64,000 nucleotides of DNA, taken from the NCBI GenBank assembly GCA_043807255.1, contig JAZDGD010000009.1, forward strand, positions 29,476 through 93,475. Reading direction: 5' to 3'. Positions 3,001 to 64,000 of this stretch are shown here, one piece after another. This DNA comes from Patescibacteria group bacterium. Lineage in GTDB: Bacteria; Patescibacteriota; Minisyncoccia; RBG-13-40-8-A. The position numbers and the translations under genes are program-made. A model generated the notes under the pieces. That model did not search any database and had not been told where the DNA came from. It worked only from the letters and a program-made list of their open reading frames with translations. How positions within the stretch are numbered: the first letter of the stretch is position 1; each line of letters starts with the position of its first letter.

Positions 3001-3570
3001 TTAAATTCTAAAAATATCATTTATTGTTTTTGGCGTAAGTTTAAATTTTTCTTTTCGAAAAGATTTTTTTGTTACCTCGTCAATGTCTTGTGTTGAAAAA
3101 GTGTCAGCACCAATCAACTCATAATGATCGTCCACTTTACCTATTCTGCCAAAAAACACATAACCCTTCTCGGTATCAAAAGTAGCCCTATATTCATTCA
3201 TCAACCATTTTTTGTTAGTTTGTAAATCCTTAATTGTAAGACTTTTGCTTCGTTCCATGTCTAACACTTCAAACATTCCGTATTCGCTATCAAGCAAATC
3301 TTTATAGAGTTTCATTTCTAATTCATTAAGATTAAAAGGATTAGTAATAATAAAATTTTTAATTGGCGTATAGCCATTATTTAATACAAAATCGTATAGG
3401 AACCATTCGTTAAAAAAGATTTCGCCTTGTTTGGTGGTTCCAAGAGAACCGCCTCTCTCTAAATCTGGACGATTATAAAATTCACGCAAAGCGCACATTA
3501 CTTCTTCGCTAAACTCGGGCGCAGTAAAATAATATTTATATACTTTTGCTATTGATCCTTTTGGTAGCAT
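3001..3570 (-). CDS. Hypothetical protein
   Basis: 189-aa ORF with typical AT-rich codon usage. No motif recognised. Confidence 0.4.
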   Translation of the reverse strand: MLPKGSIAKVYKYYFTAPEFSEEVMCALREFYNRPDLERGGSLGTTKQGEIFFNEWFLYDFVLNNGYTPIKNFIITNPFNLNELEMKLYKDLLDSEYGMFEVLDMERSKSLTIKDLQTNKKWLMNEYRATFDTEKGYVFFGRIGKVDDHYELIGADTFSTQDIDEVTKKSFRKEKFKLTPKTINDIFRI

Positions 3571-3573
3571 AAT

Positions 3574-3888
3574 TTATAAATTTTCAACGGCTTTTTTGCG
3601 ATATAACAAAATCAATCTTTCAGAATCATATTCTTTAATTTTATCTTGTGCCATAATTATTAATCCCTCCCATGCCAAAATATTAGCTTTTATTTGAGAA
3701 ATCGCTTCGTTCTTTAACTCGTGATTTTGGATTTCTGAATCATTTTCAGCAATTTTCAAAGTCGCTTTTTCTATTTCTATGTCTTCTTCCAATCTAACTA
3801 TATCGTCTTTCTCTTCCATTTTTATTTTCTCAAGTCCCTCTAATTCTTGATTTATTCTTTCCAGTTTTTTATTTTTAACTATTTCCAT
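3574..3888 (-). CDS. Hypothetical coiled-coil protein
   Basis: 104-aa Glu/Lys-rich ORF, tightly packed (3-nt gap) with the upstream ORF. Confidence 0.35.
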   Translation of the reverse strand: MEIVKNKKLERINQELEGLEKIKMEEKDDIVRLEEDIEIEKATLKIAENDSEIQNHELKNEAISQIKANILAWEGLIIMAQDKIKEYDSERLILLYRKKAVENL

Positions 3889-4112
3889 AAATTTATTTTA
3901 ATTAATTCGTTATCTTATCTTAAATCACCCTTAATTGCCTTAGATCTTTGAAGTTATGTTTTTCAACCAAAGTATCTCTATGCCAAACTTTTAAAAGTTT
4001 GGCATCCCATTCTAAATAATCGAAGGGTTCGCAAGTAGTCTTAAAATAAGAATAAATTTTATTATATTGAGATTGGAAAATTTTATATTTCATTTTTTAT
4101 ATTTTTTTAACT

Positions 4113-4880
4113 TCATAATAATTCGTATTTGCCCGAACCAATAAATCTTAAATAATTTTTATTTCTTAAAAATTGTAATTGTTGTCGGATTTTATCCTTA
4201 ATGTGTTTATTTTCCGGATGAATAATTTTTAGGTCAGTTTCGAAATTATAAATATCTTGTAAATAAAATTCTTTTTTATCTATAAAATCAATACAATTCA
4301 TAATATCTAAAATCCAGCCCCTTGCGTCTGCTTTTTTAATTTTTTTAAGAAAAACCGTTTTTTGCCATTTATCTAAAACTTGTTTTTTAGAAATTTCTTT
4401 TCCGTTTTCTACGTAAAATACTTGCCCCGCTTTGGGAATTTTTGAAAATAAAATATTTGAACCGATCCAGCCAGCTCTTCTGGCTGTCTCTTTTAGGGGT
4501 TTTCTTTTCTCAACAATTTCAGAAACAAAAAAATGTTTTGGCACAACTAAAAAATCATTTACATACAGCGACTCTAAATATCCCATAAAAAAGAAATTTG
4601 GTTTAACTTGAGAATTTATTCTTTCTATCATTTTCGAATATGCTCCAGCGGGTATAATTTTATTAATCTTTCCTTTTTTTGATTTTAATTCAAAATCTTC
4701 ATTACATTTTTCACAATAAAAATCTGCTACTGGCTTATTGTTCTCATAATTAGTAATCTTTATATTCCCACAATTAGGACAAAAAATTTCATTGTTGACC
4801 CAGTTCTCCGTTAAAACTCTCGTTTTTTGAGATAAACTTTTGTATTTATCGGCAATTTTTGTATCGAAAGATAAATTCAT
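4113..4880 (-). CDS. DpnI-like methylation-dependent (GmATC-type) restriction endonuclease
   Basis: 255 aa. N-terminus has SQKTRVLTENWV...FCPNCGN...NNKPVADFYCEKCNEDFELKSKKG (zinc ribbon plus PD-(D/E)xK region). C-terminus has IKDKIRQQLQFLRNKNYLRFIGSGKYELL (winged helix). The layout and many residues match my recollection of S. pneumoniae DpnI (254 aa). Confidence 0.55.
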   Translation of the reverse strand: MNLSFDTKIADKYKSLSQKTRVLTENWVNNEIFCPNCGNIKITNYENNKPVADFYCEKCNEDFELKSKKGKINKIIPAGAYSKMIERINSQVKPNFFFMGYLESLYVNDFLVVPKHFFVSEIVEKRKPLKETARRAGWIGSNILFSKIPKAGQVFYVENGKEISKKQVLDKWQKTVFLKKIKKADARGWILDIMNCIDFIDKKEFYLQDIYNFETDLKIIHPENKHIKDKIRQQLQFLRNKNYLRFIGSGKYELL

Positions 4881-4939
4881 ATATTTTTATCATACCTCTT
4901 TTAATAAATTTTTACCAGCATTATAGATATTTTAACAGA

Positions 4940-5137
4940 AATACCCGAGGTCTGACCTCGGGTATTTCTGTATCTTATGAGGCTAAGCCTCGTAAGATAT
5001 AATCCTGATATCGGGAGGTTCGACCTCTAACGCCCCCCCGCATCAACACTTAATATTGGGAGGTCGAACCTCTTATTATGTGGGACGTGCGACGTCCCAC
5101 ATAAATACGAAACATACGGAGAACTGTTCTCCGTATC
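4940..5137. repeat. Array of six different GC-rich hairpins in tandem
   Basis: Hairpins: cccgaggtctgacctcggg (4945), cttatgaggctaagcctcgtaag (4975), gggaggttcgacctc (5013), gggaggtcgaacctc (5058), gtgggacgtgcgacgtcccac (5080), atacggagaactgttctccgtat (5115). Confidence 0.6.
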
Positions 5138-5173
5138 TTCTATCTGTCCACTATTAATGAGAATTTGTTTGTC

Positions 5174-5291
5174 ACTGAGACAATTTCGCAGGCAAAATGC
5201 ATGGTTTCGTCCCAACAAACATGTCGTGGACGAAATTTTGCCGAGAATTAGCACGGCCACTCGCTGGAGTGGCCGATGCGTGTCGACATGA
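5174..5291 (-). ncRNA. Conserved structured element, copy A, in the 3' region of rpsI (candidate ncRNA or cis-RNA element)
   Basis: About 75% identical to 52317-52422. Compensatory changes preserve three stems. The element ends 18 nt from the rpsI stop codon. Confidence 0.4.
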
Positions 5292-5309
5292 CAAATAAAT
5301 TCGAGTGCT

Positions 5310-5843
5310 CTATCTCTTGCTCCACTGTGGCGCCTTACGGGCTTTCTTGAGGCCGAATTTTCGACGCTCTTTCTCTCTTGGGTCTCTTTTTAAAAATCCT
5401 GCCTTCTTTAGTTTCTTTCTAAAATTAATATCAAAAATAATCAATGCTCTAGAAATACCATGTCTGATTGCTTCCGCTTGTCCAGAAATTCCACCGCCAT
5501 TAACTTTCACTGTTCCTGAAAATCGGTTTGCTGATTTTAGCTTTGCAAACGGAGATTCGATTGTTTGTTGTAAAATTTGGGTTGGAAAATATTGCTTATA
5601 ATTTTTTCCATTAACTATAAGATTCCCTGCTTCCATTGATTCTGATGGATTGACAGTAAAAAGCCGAACACGAGCAACTGCTCTTTTTCTTCTGCCAACG
5701 GCCTCAATATATTCTGACTTTTTGAGCTTCCTCTCTCCAACAACGTCTTCAGAAATAGGCAGGACAACCTGAATATCCTCTGTACTTTCAGCGGGTTTTT
5801 TGGCCACTTTAACAGATTTAATTTTACTTGATTTCTCCGGCAT
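5310..5843 (-). CDS. rpsI: 30S ribosomal protein S9 (with N-terminal extension)
   Basis: C-terminus GRRKRAVARVRLF...RKFGLKKARKAPQWSKR is typical of S9. Confidence 0.85.
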   Translation of the reverse strand: MPEKSSKIKSVKVAKKPAESTEDIQVVLPISEDVVGERKLKKSEYIEAVGRRKRAVARVRLFTVNPSESMEAGNLIVNGKNYKQYFPTQILQQTIESPFAKLKSANRFSGTVKVNGGGISGQAEAIRHGISRALIIFDINFRKKLKKAGFLKRDPREKERRKFGLKKARKAPQWSKR

Positions 5844-6183
5844 ATAATTTTAAATTTTTTATTGTTTTATCTCTTAATGTATTTTTGGGGAGCATATCCC
5901 TCACTGCCATTCGTAGTGGCGCACTTGGATCTTTTACGATTAAATCCTTTAACTTGATCTCACTCACACCACCGGGATATCCTGAATGACGTCTATAAAT
6001 TTTCCCTTCCATTTTATTGCCCGTATAAATAATTTTTTCTGTATTAAAAACTACAACCTTGTTATCGCTTACCTTATAAGCCTTGAAGTCTGTACTATTT
6101 TTGCCACGCAAAAGAACAGCAATTTCAGTTGCTAATTTTCCGAGTTTTTTTTCTGAAGCGTCTATTGTGTAGTCCTTTGCCAT
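5824..6183 (-). CDS. rplM: 50S ribosomal protein L13
   Basis: 119 aa with L13-like sequence. In the conserved L13-S9 gene order. Confidence 0.85.
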   Translation of the reverse strand: MAKDYTIDASEKKLGKLATEIAVLLRGKNSTDFKAYKVSDNKVVVFNTEKIIYTGNKMEGKIYRRHSGYPGGVSEIKLKDLIVKDPSAPLRMAVRDMLPKNTLRDKTIKNLKLYAGEIK

Positions 6184-7324: not shown

Positions 7325-7412
7325 TATTCAAATCTACAAATTGTTATGCGAATCTACGAATTATTCGTTGATTCGGATACAGATTCGTATCATTCGGATA
7401 ATGTATTAATTA
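7325..7412. repeat. Palindromic intergenic repeat, family 2 (rpoA leader); copies at 60245-60340 and, inverted, at 40935-41003
   Basis: Shared sequence cgaatctacaaatt..gcgaatctacgaattattcgttgattcggata...attcg.atcattcggataat. Confidence 0.6.
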
Positions 7413-15160: not shown

Positions 15161-15199
15161 TGCTTAAATTATACAATAATAAAAAAAACAAATCCACTG

Positions 15200-15228
15200 T
15201 TGACAAAAATAATGGATATGGTACAATT
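15200..15228 (+). promoter_or_regulatory. Consensus sigma70-type promoter (TTGACA, 17-bp spacer, TACAAT)
   Basis: Exact hexamers with optimal spacing, read directly from the sequence. Confidence 0.6.
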
Positions 15229-15261
15229 ATATTGTCTTAAAAATTCTACTGGAGGTGTAAA

Positions 15262-15426
15262 GTGTTTAAAAAGAATTATTTTGTGATGCTGGAAGACGGC
15301 AAGATGATATCCGAACCCTTCGGATGGCGTGGCGTCCACAAGCAGGTCAAATTCCTGTTCGAGAAGGGAAAGACGTGCCGGGTCTTCAAGGAAAGAAAAA
15401 TCGGACTGAGGGTCAAAGTAGTATAG
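15262..15426 (+). other. GC-rich small transcription unit: sRNA or 54-aa small protein (GTG start, SD GGAGG)
   Basis: GGAGG lies 6 nt upstream of GTG. The reading frame VFKKNYFVMLEDGKMISEPFGWRGVHKQVKFLFEKGKTCRVFKERKIGLRVKVV uses GC-rich codons unlike neighbouring genes. The unit is bracketed by a consensus promoter and a strong terminator. Confidence 0.35.
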
Positions 15427-15455
15427 CTCCACCGACATCAGTTCTCGATCACAAC

Positions 15456-15492
15456 GGCCGATGCGGGCGAACCCGCATCGGCTTTTTTTATT
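15456..15492 (+). terminator. Intrinsic terminator (cggccgatgcgggcgaacccgcatcggc plus T8)
   Basis: Perfect GC-rich stem followed by a T tract. Confidence 0.7.
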
Positions 15493-15569
15493 TAACCCCT
15501 CCACACCTCCCCTTATCAAGGGAGGTTATTGTTTTTTGCCGAATAAAATAGAGGTGGCCCGTGCCACCC

Positions 15570-16193
15570 CTACATGTTTCTTATTCTATCGAACTCCTCC
15601 TCAGAAAATACCATCCACCGTTTTTGGTGCTTGGCGTAATATTTTTCGGCGTTTGTGCGTGTAGTTATTATCCTCCTATTGTCATTAAAAAAATAACTTT
15701 TTCTGTCGGTATTGAACGCCTTGTCATGCTCGCCAATAATCCTCTCTAAGGCACTGGCCATGCATCTTGTATCGTAATGCATGCGTGCCAACAACTTTAT
15801 TGTTGCGAAATCAACGGAAGCCTCTCGCTCTTGATCGTCAAATGCTACAATATTGTTCAAGGCATGGCAAATCTCATGCAAAACAATGGAGACTAGTTCG
15901 GCTTCGTTGTTAACAGCCTCAACAACCCTTTCGTCGATATATATTTCTTTCGTATCATTAATAATATATGCCCATTCGGGATTATTGAGCGAGGCACTAA
16001 CATAATAAATTTTAAATCCGATTTTATTTGCCCCGTCAACAAAATTAATGATTTTGTCGAGAATCTTATTTAACAATACATCACCATAGACGCCCTTATT
16101 CTCAAAATCATTAATTGTTTGCGCGAAGCAAAAATACAGGACGAGAAAGAACAAGGCCACTAAACCTTTCTTTTCCATTGTTTCCCTCCTCAA
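15570..16193 (-). CDS. Secreted/lipoprotein HExxH zinc metallopeptidase
   Basis: 207 aa with a signal peptide and the HEICH motif. Confidence 0.5.
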   Translation of the reverse strand: MRRETMEKKGLVALFFLVLYFCFAQTINDFENKGVYGDVLLNKILDKIINFVDGANKIGFKIYYVSASLNNPEWAYIINDTKEIYIDERVVEAVNNEAELVSIVLHEICHALNNIVAFDDQEREASVDFATIKLLARMHYDTRCMASALERIIGEHDKAFNTDRKSYFFNDNRRIITTRTNAEKYYAKHQKRWMVFSEEEFDRIRNM

Positions 16194-30028: not shown

Positions 30029-30117
30029 ATCTGTTTACATTTTAACACAAAAAAATCTTTTATTGAATTAAAAAGCGGTCATCCGCAGGATGACCGCTTT
30101 CGTATAATTAATTCTGA

Positions 30118-30780: not shown

Positions 30781-30885
30781 TTTTTTATATATATTAATTA
30801 TTAATTTATTAATTGTTAGTTAATATACAGTATAGCACACATTTAATGTGGTGCCATGGGAATTCAAGCCCAAGTTTTTTAGAAT

Positions 30886-30916
30886 AAATCTTACGAGGTT
30901 AAACCTCGTAAGATTT
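30886..30916. repeat. REP-like palindrome, copy 1 (aaatcttacgaggttaaacctcgtaagattt)
   Basis: Perfect 14-bp inverted repeat overlapping the transposase stop codon. Confidence 0.7.
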
Positions 30917-31610
30917 ATTCTAATGACAATTCTCTTGCGTCGTTTACTGCCATGTCCTTCAGCCATTTTTCTATATTTTGTTTGTATTTCCCATCTCCAC
31001 CAAACACTCCCAATAAAAATTCTCTATTTGTAATTGAAGGAAAGTTCTTTTTACCTGCGTAATCCAAATAACTAGACCAACGATAATTGCCTAAATATTC
31101 CATCGCTCCGTTATAATTATTTAGTTTTCTTGCTCGCCATTCCGGAAAACTGAGATCTAGTGGATTCAAATGAATATAATATGGAAGGTTTAAGAAATGA
31201 TTTTGTTTGTCGATTAAAATTGATTTATACGTACTCTGAAATAATGTTCCCCTTCTTTTGTATTTTTTATTGAATGACATCGTATAACCGGTTCCTAATT
31301 TTTGCATAAACCTAGAAATACCATTATCTTTTTTCTGTTTCAACAATAAATGATAATGATTTGGCATCAAACAAAATGCTAAAATTTCCACAAGCAATTT
31401 TCTCTCTTTAATCTTGCGAGGTTTAACCTCGTAAGATTCTAGGTCCATAGATTTATAATATATATTTTCTGCGGGTGCCTCATCGTTAAATTCATACAGA
31501 TCGTGAATAAAACGAAGATGGTCCTTGTCGTCTGCAAATATGTTTCTCTGTTCAACTCCGTGATTTAAAACGTGATAAATTTCATTATTTTCAAATTGTG
31601 GTTTTTTCAT
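30915..31610 (-). mobile_element. tnpA: IS200/IS605-type Y1 (HUH) transposase, REP-associated (RAYT-like)
   Basis: N-terminal YHVLNHGVEQRNIF, HUH motif PNHYHLLL, and catalytic Tyr context GTLFQSTYKSILID. Flanked by REP-like palindromes. Confidence 0.6.
31410..31438. repeat. REP-like palindrome, copy 2, inside the transposase CDS in-frame
   Basis: aatcttgcgaggtttaacctcgtaagatt, which encodes SYEVKPRKI. Confidence 0.65.
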
Positions 31611-31640
31611 AATATTTTTATATTATCATAATTAAAATAT

Positions 31641-31667
31641 GTTTACGAGGTTAAACCTCGTAAGATT
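31641..31667. repeat. REP-like palindrome, copy 3
   Basis: gtttacgaggttaaacctcgtaagatta. Confidence 0.7.
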
Positions 31668-31721
31668 AATTGTAACATAAAAATTGATATTTAGATATAA
31701 TTCTGCTATATTTTAACTAAC

Positions 31722-31794
31722 GGCCCCATCGTCTAGTGGCCCAGGACATCAGATTCTCATTCTGAAAACACCGGTTCAACTCCGGTTGGGGCTA
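31722..31794 (+). tRNA. tRNA-Glu (anticodon CTC)
   Basis: Hand-folded cloverleaf: acceptor GGCCCCA/TGGGGCT, anticodon loop TTCTCAT, T-loop TTCAACT. Confidence 0.7.
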
Positions 31795-31800
31795 AAACCA

Positions 31801-31833
31801 AAAATCTTACGAGGTTTAACCTCGTAAGATTTT
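31801..31833. repeat. REP-like palindrome, copy 4
   Basis: aaaatcttacgaggtttaacctcgtaagatttt. Confidence 0.7.
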
Positions 31834-40934: not shown

Positions 40935-41003
40935 TATTATTCGAATGATGCGAATTCTTATCCGAATCAACGAATTCGTAGATTCGGATATTTTATTTGT
41001 AGA
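40935..41003. repeat. Palindromic intergenic repeat, family 2, inverted copy (Clp ATPase leader)
   Basis: tatccgaatcaacgaattcgtagattcggata is a near-perfect 32-bp palindrome and the reverse complement of the 7325/60245 copies. Confidence 0.6.
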
Positions 41004-46784: not shown

Positions 46785-46839
46785 CAGACCACGAATTACT
46801 AATCTGTACGAATATACAGATAAAAACAGAAACGCCCTG

Positions 46840-46878
46840 CAGTTGCAGGACGTTTCTGTTTGGAGGCCGAACCTCCGC
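46840..46878 (+). terminator. Intrinsic terminator (11-bp stem aaacagaaacg...cgtttctgttt)
   Basis: Nested hairpin plus a T tract after the 44799..46784 gene. Confidence 0.6.
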
Positions 46879-47364: not shown

Positions 47365-47455
47365 TATGATGCCAATCTACTAATCTTATGCCAATCTACA
47401 GACTGCGAATTCGCAGTTCGCATAATTGGCATTAAATTCGCATATTCGCATTATG
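47365..47455. repeat. 90-bp palindromic leader repeat, family 1 (rplL leader); near-identical copy at 62985-63075 in the rplK leader
   Basis: gccaatctactaatcttatgccaatctacagactgcgaattcgcagttcgcataattggcat... Confidence 0.7.
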
Positions 47456-52287: not shown

Positions 52288-52315
52288 CCCTCACCCAAAG
52301 TGAGGATTTATTTTA
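52288..52315. terminator. Bidirectional terminator (ccctcacccaaagtgaggg with flanking T/A tracts)
   Basis: Hairpin followed by TTTATTTT. Confidence 0.65.
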
Positions 52316-52316
52316 T

Positions 52317-52422
52317 ACTGAGACAACTTCGGAAGCCAAAAGCACGGTTTTTTCTGAAAGAAAAATTTTGGCTGAGAATTAATGCAGCCACCCGCTGGGG
52401 TGGCTGACATGTGTCGACATAT
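52317..52422 (-). ncRNA. Conserved structured element, copy B (3' region of the SLT-domain gene)
   Basis: Aligns with 5174-5291. Ends 18 nt after the stop codon of 52441..53763. Confidence 0.4.
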
Positions 52423-52440
52423 AAAATGAATCTGAGCGTC

Positions 52441-53763
52441 CTACCCTTTTTCCATAATATCAATTTGTTCTTGAAAATTTTCTGCTCTTTCCATCACTTG
52501 ATCACCATAAAAACGCAAAGACGATTTTTGCCAATTTGCACCGGCCAAATACATCATTGTTGCTTTCCATTCTGCTTTTTCTGTTTTTTGATCAGCCCCC
52601 TTATTCACCAAATATAGTGCCGAAGCAATAAATGCATCTTTAACATTCCACGGTGATGGCGGATTATTTCCTGTTATTTCTGCAATTTTTGCCTTATACC
52701 CCAACCAAGTGGCTGGCATCATTTGCGCTGGGCCCATTGCCCCACCCCAACCATACCAAACCTTTTTTGATACTGGATATTTATCTGGGTCAATTCCCAA
52801 TTCTTCACAAATCTGTAAATAATAAGTTCTTTGGCTTAGTTTCATATCAACTCGCCACGTTCCTTTGCCAATATTTTTTCCCAATTCTGATTCTCTGCTT
52901 AAAATTGCCAAAAGAAACGCTGGCCTTATTCCAGTATGAATTCCTGCAAATTTTGCATATTTATATGCATCTTCAAACCTTAACGAACCATCAGTTGATA
53001 TGTCTTGCAAAAAATAAAGTTTGTTTTTTATCGTTTCTATGTCGGCCTGAGTTTTTTTCATTAACTGATTAAACAGATTTTCTTGGCCATTGGTTTGGGC
53101 CAATAAATTATTCCTTTGTTTTTTCTTTAGTTCCAACCCAGCCCTCTGTTCGGCTTGTATATATTTTAATGATGCCTGTTCTTCTTTCTCGTTCACTAAA
53201 TCTGTTTTTTCTTTTTCTAAGGTTGATTTTGCATTAGAAATTTTCTTAAGCTGTTCTTGAACCTGTTGATGAAAATTTTCTAAAGATCTTATTTCCGAAA
53301 GAAAATCCGATAAACTCCCTTCAGTCAAAACCACTTCTACAAGCGAAGTGTCGTCATATTTTCTCACTTCTCTCAATAATTCGGCAATAGTTGTTTTTTC
53401 TAAATCAACTTCGCGCTCTATTTCGCGAATTGATTTTTCTTTTTGATTTATTTGCTTGTCGAGTTTCTTAATCAACAAATCAGTTCTTTGAATTTCTAAT
53501 TCTGCAGAATTAATTTGTGCATCTAAAATCACGATTTCTGTTTTTAATGATTTTGCCTGTTGTTGATTTTCGGTTATTGCTTGCTGATACTGGCCAATTT
53601 TTGATTCCAATTCTTTTAGTCGTGCCTCTGCTTCTTGCTCTTGGACATCAATATCGAGAGATGTCTCGGCAAAAACAAAACCCGCTCTAAGCGGAAAAAC
53701 GCAAAAAATGGCAATAATTGCCATTAAAATAAAACTTTTATTAAGTTTAACAAACTTAATCAT
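52441..53763 (-). CDS. Secreted coiled-coil protein with a C-terminal lytic transglycosylase (SLT) domain
   Basis: Signal peptide, long coiled coil, and GGAMGPAQMMPATW with SLT-domain-like context. Confidence 0.6.
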   Translation of the reverse strand: MIKFVKLNKSFILMAIIAIFCVFPLRAGFVFAETSLDIDVQEQEAEARLKELESKIGQYQQAITENQQQAKSLKTEIVILDAQINSAELEIQRTDLLIKKLDKQINQKEKSIREIEREVDLEKTTIAELLREVRKYDDTSLVEVVLTEGSLSDFLSEIRSLENFHQQVQEQLKKISNAKSTLEKEKTDLVNEKEEQASLKYIQAEQRAGLELKKKQRNNLLAQTNGQENLFNQLMKKTQADIETIKNKLYFLQDISTDGSLRFEDAYKYAKFAGIHTGIRPAFLLAILSRESELGKNIGKGTWRVDMKLSQRTYYLQICEELGIDPDKYPVSKKVWYGWGGAMGPAQMMPATWLGYKAKIAEITGNNPPSPWNVKDAFIASALYLVNKGADQKTEKAEWKATMMYLAGANWQKSSLRFYGDQVMERAENFQEQIDIMEKG

Positions 53764-60244: not shown

Positions 60245-60340
60245 AATCTACAAATTAGTATACGAATCTACGAATAATTCGTTGATTCGGATAAATATTC
60301 GCATCATTCGGATAATATTACTTATATTGTAATTATACCA
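60245..60340. repeat. Palindromic intergenic repeat, family 2 (gap leader)
   Basis: cgaatctacaaattagtatacgaatctacgaataattcgttgattcggataaatattcgcatcattcggataat. Confidence 0.6.
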
Positions 60341-62984: not shown

Positions 62985-63075
62985 ATTATTATAATGCCAA
63001 TCTACTAATCTTATGCCAATCTACAGACTGCGAATTCGCAGTTCGCAATATTGGCATTAAGTTCGCATATTCGCA
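62985..63075. repeat. 90-bp palindromic leader repeat, family 1 (rplK leader copy)
   Basis: About 90% identical to 47365-47455. Confidence 0.7.
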
Positions 63076-63830: not shown

Positions 63831-64000
63831 AGGCCATCTTAATTACAAGTTTATTATAAAATAATTCCCGTGTCAATAATTATTTATAACTATCTCTTTC
63901 GTAATTTGAATTAAAAAAATTTAATGATTTTGTTCATATTTGAAGATGTCAGAGGTCATACCTCAGACATCTATATTTTTAAGACTGTAAACTAAATTCA

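Follow-up and report, generated by a model that had tools for sequence, protein, structure and literature searches.

The rpsI–DpnI locus

The stretch of DNA analyzed here (hereafter the window: 64 kb of a Patescibacteria contig, with a G+C content of 34.7%) carries on its minus strand a ribosomal-protein and rpoA operon comprising infA, rpmJ, rpsM, rpsK, rpsD, rpoA, rplQ, rplM, and rpsI, identities that were read off the translations of the open reading frames (ORFs) without hidden Markov models. The final gene of the rplM-rpsI unit, rpsI (5310..5843, minus strand), encodes ribosomal protein S9, its translation ending in the typical ...PQWSKR, and the homologous S9 gene in one of the related loci (L002) carries a precomputed PF00380 assignment. 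The rpsI stop codon of the window occupies positions 5310-5312, and a spacer of 429 bp (4881-5309) separates it from a gene on the same strand for a DpnI-family type IIM (methyl-directed) restriction endonuclease of 255 aa (4113..4880). This spacer is composed of two parts, a mosaic of palindromes and a structured element, here called X, with the structured stretch reaching position 5310. On balance, the data point to two unrelated neighbors: an orthodox DpnI gene lying in a low-GC accessory islet and, at the operon end, a spacer that probably consists of X together with a mosaic of selfish palindromes resembling repetitive extragenic palindromes (REPs) and their clusters, the bacterial interspersed mosaic elements (BIMEs).

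The DpnI-family endonuclease

Judged by its sequence, the ORF at 4113-4880 is an orthodox DpnI, as the initial annotation had proposed from the DNA alone: a PD-(D/E)XK nuclease with a Cys4 zinc site forms the N-terminal part, and the C-terminal part is a winged helix of the type that reads N6-methyladenine. The check that it had named, a search with the Pfam DpnI profile (PF06044), gave a match over residues 1-180 (E = 1.6e-74) that scored 250 bits, where the cutoff is 26.7, and spanned positions 1-182 of the 183 in the profile; the DpnI_C profile (PF17726) matched residues 185-253 (E = 1.7e-30; profile positions 1-69 of 70), a region that aligns to the winged-helix domain of PDB 4ESJ. The latter entry, R.DpnI of Streptococcus pneumoniae, matches end-to-end over residues 1-253 (E = 5.9e-83), and the PADLOC model mREase_II ('type II methyl-directed restriction enzyme') matches at E = 3e-102. 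The PD-(D/E)XK residues of R.DpnI are E25, D53, E64, and K66, and its zinc site is formed by two CXXC motifs (PMC3424567); all four residues, as well as C34/C37 and C56/C59, are found in identical positions in the window protein, the alignment with 4ESJ being gapless over residues 1-100. The zinc motifs read CPNC (34-37) and CEKC (56-59), and the C-terminus is HIKDKIRQQLQFLRNKNYLRFIGSGKYELL, as had been quoted. The gene is ordinary and already known, since a 100% identical protein from a Patescibacteria metagenome-assembled genome (MAG) carries the NCBI annotation 'DpnI domain-containing protein' and homologues at E<=1e-10 number 6589, those with a named source being Patescibacteria; the best 120 of these 6589 homologues show 72-85% identity. 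A short AT-rich leader (4881..4934, minus strand) contains the hexamers TATAAT (4925..4920) and AGAGGT (4899..4894) ahead of the ATG (4880..4878), and the gene thus appears to have its own predicted promoter.

The enzyme had also been described as solitary, and no methyltransferase motif ([DNS]PP[YFWH] or PCQ) was found in any window ORF of at least 100 aa. The window contains 133 GATC sites, with an observed/expected ratio of 0.74 against 0.77-0.95 for other 4-bp palindromes. Both observations fit an unmethylated host, as far as the 64 kb examined can represent it; by homology, the enzyme should cut incoming Dam-methylated G(m6A)TC DNA, while the 133 GATC sites of the host in this window would stay unmethylated. 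In one relative (L001, GCA_024654575.1), positions 5754-6014 encode an 88-aa N-terminal piece of a DPPY-type DNA methyltransferase (…DMIFADPPYNLSNGG…), located directly upstream of the DpnI homologue and overlapping its start. This fragment seems to be left over from a methylase whose place the DpnI gene has taken, a situation reminiscent of the DpnI/DpnII cassette exchange in pneumococci.

Structure of the spacer hairpins

Inverted-repeat searches identified six hairpins, H1 to H6, spanning 4935-5139. H1 (4935..4971) is a perfect 18-bp palindrome of the GAGG-N-CCTC class, with the apex GAGGTC-T-GACCTC, and it is followed by H2 (4971..4999), in which 13 of 14 positions pair and one is G.T, and whose matches identify it as a diverged copy of ATCTTACGAGGYTWARCCTCGTAAGAT, the palindrome of family b (see below). 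Repeat comparison resolves the next two hairpins as a single inverted doublet, H3-spacer-H4 (5008..5073), composed of GGGAGGTTCGACCTC and GGGAGGTCGAACCTC and arranged like a REPIN, the REP doublet that forms a hairpin; their cores (5015-5027 and 5060-5072) have just five perfect pairs each (GAGGT/ACCTC) in addition to wobbles, and the two units share 81% identity when aligned as direct repeats, while over 13 nt each is the exact reverse complement of the other. H5 (5076..5104) is a perfect 13-bp inverted repeat, TTATGTGGGACGTGCGACGTCCCACATAA, and H6 (5111..5139) has 11 perfect pairs (13/14 overall) and is the sole unit with a terminator-like T-rich tail. When a terminator is defined as a stem plus a T-tract, only H6 (5114-5136) is recovered, and H1-H5 and X are not.

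The density of hairpins is as unusual as the initial annotation had claimed. The spacer (4881-5309) folds at -177.7 kcal/mol on the plus strand and -182.5 kcal/mol on the minus strand, whereas shuffled sequences average -100.8 and -106.0 (z = -13.9 and -15.6, respectively); in addition, 4 of the 24 strong hairpins of the window (at least 10 pairs, GC of at least 0.35) fall within a stretch of 205 bp, where approximately 0.08 would be expected. Hairpins of the form GAGG-N3-7-CCTC number 12 in the window, versus 0.74 expected, and H1-H4 are four of them. The wording of six distinct, perfect, GC-rich hairpins needs to be amended: there are indeed six, of which only three combine length with perfect pairing; H3 and H4 represent the same unit twice and hence are not distinct; and the GC content of the hairpins (0.38-0.52) is high only in relation to that of the window (0.347).

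Palindrome families and the Y1 transposase

At least four of the six hairpin units appear to belong to dispersed palindrome families common to several genomes. Family b has five copies in the window, four of them around a gene for a REP-associated tyrosine transposase (RAYT)-like Y1 (HUH) transposase of ~231 aa (ORF 30915-31610, minus strand; 30879..31833 with its palindromes; Pfam Y1_Tnp, 7.9e-11). These four copies are located at 30879-30923, 31410-31438 (inside the ORF), 31643-31663, and 31801-31833; the fifth is H2, a diverged copy of ATCTTACGAGGTTWAACCTCGTAAGAT, the palindrome that brackets the Y1 ORF and also lies within it. H2 matches the transposase copies of the window at 24 of 27 positions and a copy in L116 (957-983) at 26 of 27. 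Two homologues of the Y1 gene (85% and 78% identity, in L125 and L127) have the family-b palindrome at three equivalent positions, and one of these loci has a genomic context unlike that of the window. A Y1 gene bracketed by its own palindrome is, by analogy, the classical RAYT-REP arrangement. The layout itself is the same in the window (30879-31833), L125 (2942-3732), and L127 (2786-3727): a palindrome of 27-29 nt is present ~30 nt upstream of the gene, at a fixed position within the ORF, where it encodes ESYEVKPRKI, and at the stop codon. In the window and in L127, the gene adjoins tRNA-Glu.

Units of the H3/H4 type are found in the window at 5015, 5060, and 46863, the last being a related single unit, and the doublet recurs in L119 (13-66) and in L023 (779-815), in the latter between a TATAAT box and a start codon. 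H5 occurs once in the window and is also present in L061, L090, L083, and L116. The copy in L061 (6173-6201) is identical at 29 of 29 positions and lies inside alaS (Pfam tRNA-synt_2c, 1e-112), and a near-identical copy in L090 (47-75) occupies the matching position. In both relatives, the palindrome is in frame in the coding sequence of alanyl-tRNA synthetase, which reads LCGTSHVPHK or LCGTSDVPHK at this point. Comparison does not establish H5 in alaS as a clean insertion: the window has no alaS, and the corresponding segment of E. coli AlaRS is of similar length. In L116 and L061, H2 and H5 carry their loops in the opposite orientation, and a related hairpin, GGAGGTCGCACCTCC, is inserted within a stem of X in L018 and L049. 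For H1 and H6, no homologue was found in 780 kb of related loci. A metagenome scan for the combination of the H1 and H5 apices returned 0 matches, the whole array thus having no close relative there, and the literature yielded nothing relevant on REP/RAYT systems in Patescibacteria or on the motifs of X.

Other palindromes are repeated in the window as well. A family with the sequence CGAATCTACGAATWATTCGTTGATTCG has copies at 7349-7375, 40959-40990, and 60263-60289, each in a short gap between co-directional minus-strand genes, and the palindrome ACTGCGAATTCGCAGT is found twice, at 47402-47417 and 63027-63042.

Orthologous loci downstream of rpsI

Two metagenome contigs, L116 and L119, are orthologous to the window locus, with an X that is ~95% identical followed by the 3' end of rpsI. 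In L116, a hairpin resembling a terminator is joined by units similar to H2 and H5 (the latter at 993-1025, with a compensatory change from G-C to A-T); an unrelated gene of 137 aa follows, and DpnI is absent. In L119, the H3-spacer-H4 doublet lies beside X, immediately upstream of X and rpsI, before the contig end. The subsets of units thus differ between orthologous rpsI-X loci: H1-H6 in the window, H2 and H5 in L116, and H3 and H4 in L119.

Among the loci of DpnI homologues, the gene follows msrA/msrB genes in L001; it is located ~4.7 kb downstream of rpsI in L002 and L003, after grpE-dnaK and before genes resembling those of type IV secretion systems; and it is found in a third context in L004-L007. 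None of these homologues (80-85% identity, L001-L007, three contexts) has a hairpin array or X, and upstream there is at most one ordinary terminator. The association of DpnI with the hairpins that the initial annotation had implied is unsupported, since neither the array nor X occurs at the DpnI-homologue loci examined and L116 has hairpin units without DpnI; it rather looks as if an accessory islet had landed in or beside a repeat-rich operon end.

Element X

The part of the spacer adjacent to rpsI is a three-stem element of 158 nt on the plus strand (copy A, 5153..5310) that ends at the rpsI stop codon and is recognized by the covariance model R1 with 139 bits (E = 3.7e-33). Copy B (52296..52441, plus strand; 156.7 bits, E = 1.1e-37) ends in the same manner at the stop codon of an opposite-strand gene (52441-53763), and the alignment of both copies in the same orientation reveals compensatory changes in all three stems. 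R1 finds exactly these two copies in the window and none in the loci of the DpnI homologues or of the Y1 transposases. X is a three-way junction of 146-158 nt with ~33 near-invariant junction nucleotides (CUGAGACAAYUUCG, GAGAAUUA, and GUGUCGACA), and more than 100 copies are present in Patescibacteria (loci L008-L124, besides the window). Scanning with an exact pattern derived from three conserved single-stranded motifs retrieved 17 copies in GTDB representative genomes (MAGs labeled Saccharibacteria, Portnoybacteria RBG_13_40_8, and unclassified Patescibacteria) and 101 metagenome contig stretches. Across 42 diverse gapless copies, a four-helix structure has 97.2% of cells paired and double changes in 32 of 47 pairs; 0 of 500 shuffles reach the observed values, and slid controls give 30-43%. 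At gathering level, the only Rfam 15 matches in the whole window are six tRNAs, and relaxing the threshold to E<=10 over 4800-5400 and over a canonical X copy in L017 produced weak, chance-level matches only.

The position of X is rigid. An opposite-strand ORF lies beside 98 of 107 unique copies; in all but two of these it ends 12-32 nt past the core (mode, 18-21), which puts its stop codon at the base of the closing stem. Of the remaining 9 copies, 5 are at contig ends. In the 150 nt on the other side, promoter-like sites directed away from X on the gene strand were found in 26 of 101 copies and sites directed into X in 5 of 101. This layout suggests that X is co-transcribed with the upstream gene, that is, on the gene strand. 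The displayed strand folds more stably in 95 of 101 copies (by a mean of -5.6 kcal/mol), its wobbles are more frequently G.U than A.C (115 vs 48), tandem G.A pairs are common, and purines predominate in loops and bulges; as the functional strand, the displayed one is favored by folding energy and wobble counts. Nearly all of the wobble excess comes from the AT-rich outer stem (87 vs 26), and it could derive from shared ancestry, because P2a and P3 together give 28 vs 22. Scanning for terminators past X did not discriminate between the strands, with 14 of 100 on one and 22 of 100 on the other. X may represent a device specific to the lineage that acts at 3' ends or resembles a terminator, or else a mobile element of a new type.

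Several identities of X were considered and discarded. The junctions of the hammerhead, the hairpin ribozyme, group II domain V, and the purine riboswitch do not fit by eye, and the Rfam models gave no match. A 29-codon ORF starting from the conserved GCATGG is incompatible with stem lengths that vary by non-multiples of 3 and with an ATG that is often ACG.

Origin of the hairpin array

The closest known analogue of the hairpins, by comparison of their arrangement, is a BIME-like REP cluster at an operon 3' end. The units could have spread by a single-strand mechanism of the HUH/Y1-transposase type; in transcripts from the end of the rpsI operon, the stable stem-loops stacked there might, to judge from their position, act as a 3'-end barrier to read-through and exonucleases, and this barrier could insulate the horizontally acquired DpnI islet from a strong ribosomal-protein operon. 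Several observations weigh against this interpretation. Canonical REPs number in the hundreds and have a conserved 5' GT(A/G)G. The sequence of the family-b copies is ...AATCTTACGAGG..., H1-H6 have no common GTAG or GTGG head, and each palindrome family has few copies in the 64 kb. The best and only NCBIfam match of the transposase, REP_Tyr_transpos (NF047646; E = 3.1e-12), remains at 46.6 bits, below the cutoff of 80; the tie to a transposase concerns family b alone, with no mobilizing enzyme identified for H3/H4 or H5; H1 and H6 may be plain local terminators, because they have no detectable relatives; and a single hairpin of the six, H6, has the stem and T-tract of a terminator. Since the GT(A/G)G head is missing and the score stays under the curated RAYT threshold, the array is not a strict member of the REP/BIME class. 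Nevertheless, the rival explanations fit less well.

The first of these takes the six hairpins for a tandem series of terminators, neither mobile nor repeated, that arose in place to stop the highly expressed ribosomal-protein operon before the DpnI gene. The location of the hairpins between the rpsI stop codon and the DpnI promoter region agrees with this, as do the recognition of H6 by a terminator-like scan on both strands, the flanking of H1 by AAA/TTT in the same way as clear bidirectional terminators elsewhere in the window, such as those at 30072-30100 and 46824-46861, and the fact that most X copies elsewhere have no other terminator ahead of the next promoter. However, five of the six hairpins lack a T-tract, and H2, H3/H4, and H5 are found nearly unchanged in other genomes and contexts, including coding sequences and a 5' leader. 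Evolution in place would not yield units that recur across genomes and in subsets differing between orthologous loci, and this explanation appears unlikely.

Alternatively, in the strong form of the hotspot idea, the hairpins may be attachment or recombination sites by which the DpnI islet, or successive cassettes, were integrated downstream of rpsI. The GC content of the islet is below that of its flanks, hairpins are present at both borders (2905-2991 and 4935-5139), the gene after rpsI-X differs between the window and L116, and the context of DpnI differs in each relative; nonetheless, there is no integrase or recombinase in or beside the islet, the border hairpins are not copies of one another, DpnI homologues elsewhere are not flanked by hairpins of this kind, and the same palindromes are found where no islet exists, around the Y1 transposase and inside alaS. 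Integration at such sites is consequently improbable. The suggestion that the array marks a recombination or insertion hotspot holds insofar as both the units and the following gene differ between orthologous loci and the islet is low in GC, although the hairpins themselves look REP-like rather than like attachment sites for DpnI.

Least probable of all is a single structured non-coding RNA of ~380 nt, formed by H1-H6 and X on the plus strand and antisense to the flanking genes: every non-Watson-Crick position in H2, H3, and H4 is G.T on that strand, and the displayed strand of X folds better, with G.U exceeding A.C, purine-rich loops, and tandem G.A pairs, but the hairpin part does not stay together (its subsets differ between L116 and L119, and it is missing beside most X copies), promoter-like sites are directed into X in 5 of 101 cases against 26 of 101 away from it on the gene strand, and the wobble excess of X is nearly all from the outer stem.

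The low-GC islet and other features of the window

The region from 3001 to 4880 is interpreted here as a small low-GC accessory or defense islet that would have been acquired downstream of rplM-rpsI. The GC content falls to 0.21-0.29 over ~3500-4900, compared with 0.35-0.40 in the ribosomal operon, and three small ORFs follow DpnI on the minus strand (3001..4093), at 3920-4093 (57 aa), 3574-3888 (104 aa), and 3001-3570 (189 aa). As the initial annotation had stated for the genes downstream, they are uncharacterized, with no match in Pfam, NCBIfam, PADLOC, or PHROG. The 189-aa ORF has 41 homologues, the few with source names being from Patescibacteria and some reaching ~300 aa; their neighbors in the two contexts that were examined are HicA or AbiEii genes, not DpnI. 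To judge by protein lengths only, the 104-aa and 189-aa ORFs may correspond to one fused protein of ~300 aa in some relatives (P0249, P0256, and P0264). A conserved two-gene module with DpnI was considered and rejected: a small ORF follows the gene at every locus examined, but these ORFs are non-homologous across loci.

At the far border of the islet, the inverted-repeat search found two hairpins, at 2905-2937 and 2961-2991. The first belongs to the palindrome ATGTCAGAGGTCATACCTC[T/A]GACAT, of which a near-identical copy is present at 63944-63972. Elsewhere in the window, two closely spaced hairpins of very high GC content (0.67-0.77) are found at 15457-15572, where an ORF (15169-15519) is listed; these could belong to an unannotated structured RNA, although Rfam gives nothing there at the gathering threshold. 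ARAGORN detected no transfer-messenger RNA in the window, and three window ORFs have identical proteins annotated in an NCBI MAG named 'Patescibacteria group bacterium'.

Significance

The DpnI gene in itself adds little, beyond the hint that methyl-directed restriction is common in Patescibacteria; the most interesting items lie just outside the stretch to which attention had been drawn, namely X and the REP-like palindrome system. It is tentatively proposed, as a possibility somewhat short of probable, that both are undescribed features of Patescibacteria: X as a new class of structured RNA or single-stranded DNA located antisense at stop codons, and a REP-RAYT-like system of 27-37-bp palindromes that form BIME-like mosaics and are found even in frame in essential genes. 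The spacer suggests that streamlined genomes carry selfish palindrome families tied to a domesticated-looking Y1 transposase, and that REP-like palindromes accumulate at operon ends beside accessory islets. With its strong covariation, the lack of an Rfam family, and its rigid 3'-end position, X is a candidate for a transcript-end mechanism of the lineage or for a new mobile element.

Comparison with known systems

The window endonuclease resembles R.DpnI of Streptococcus pneumoniae (type IIM; PDB 4ESJ and 4KYW) in length and two-domain architecture, in the PD-(D/E)XK residues, the two zinc-binding CxxC pairs, and the winged helix at the C-terminus, and in the lack of a partner methyltransferase near the gene. 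It differs in its host, a Patescibacteria MAG, and in the absence of the pneumococcal dpn cassette context from the window; its specificity and activity are predicted ones. The hairpins share with Rho-independent terminators the position of stable stem-loops directly downstream of an operon; nevertheless, five of the six, as well as X, have no U-tract, and six consecutive terminators would be unusual.

Like the enterobacterial repetitive intergenic consensus (ERIC) or intergenic repeat unit (IRU), the Correia elements, and the Rickettsia palindromic elements, X is a multi-copy intergenic sequence with a long closing stem and compensatory changes, and it is present in several distinct Patescibacteria genomes. 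Unlike them, X has ~33 near-invariant unpaired nucleotides around a three-way junction, combined with stems whose sequences differ strongly, also between copies of one genome. Its orientation is always the same, as is its place at the stop codon of the gene on the other strand; constant-sequence terminal inverted repeats and target duplications were not seen.

The likeness of the palindromes to the REP, BIME, and REPIN elements of E. coli and Pseudomonas and their RAYTs consists of short extragenic palindromes in tandem at an operon 3' end, the inverted doublet H3/H4, a Y1/HUH gene bracketed by the family-b palindrome in an arrangement kept in other genomes, and unit content that varies between orthologous loci. 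In contrast to those systems, the units of the window are shorter (27-37 bp), mostly perfect, and devoid of the GT(A/G)G head; several unrelated families are assembled in one cluster, each with few copies in 64 kb; the ~231-aa transposase scores under the NCBIfam RAYT cutoff; and copies also lie in frame inside coding sequences, both in the transposase gene itself and in the alaS of relatives.

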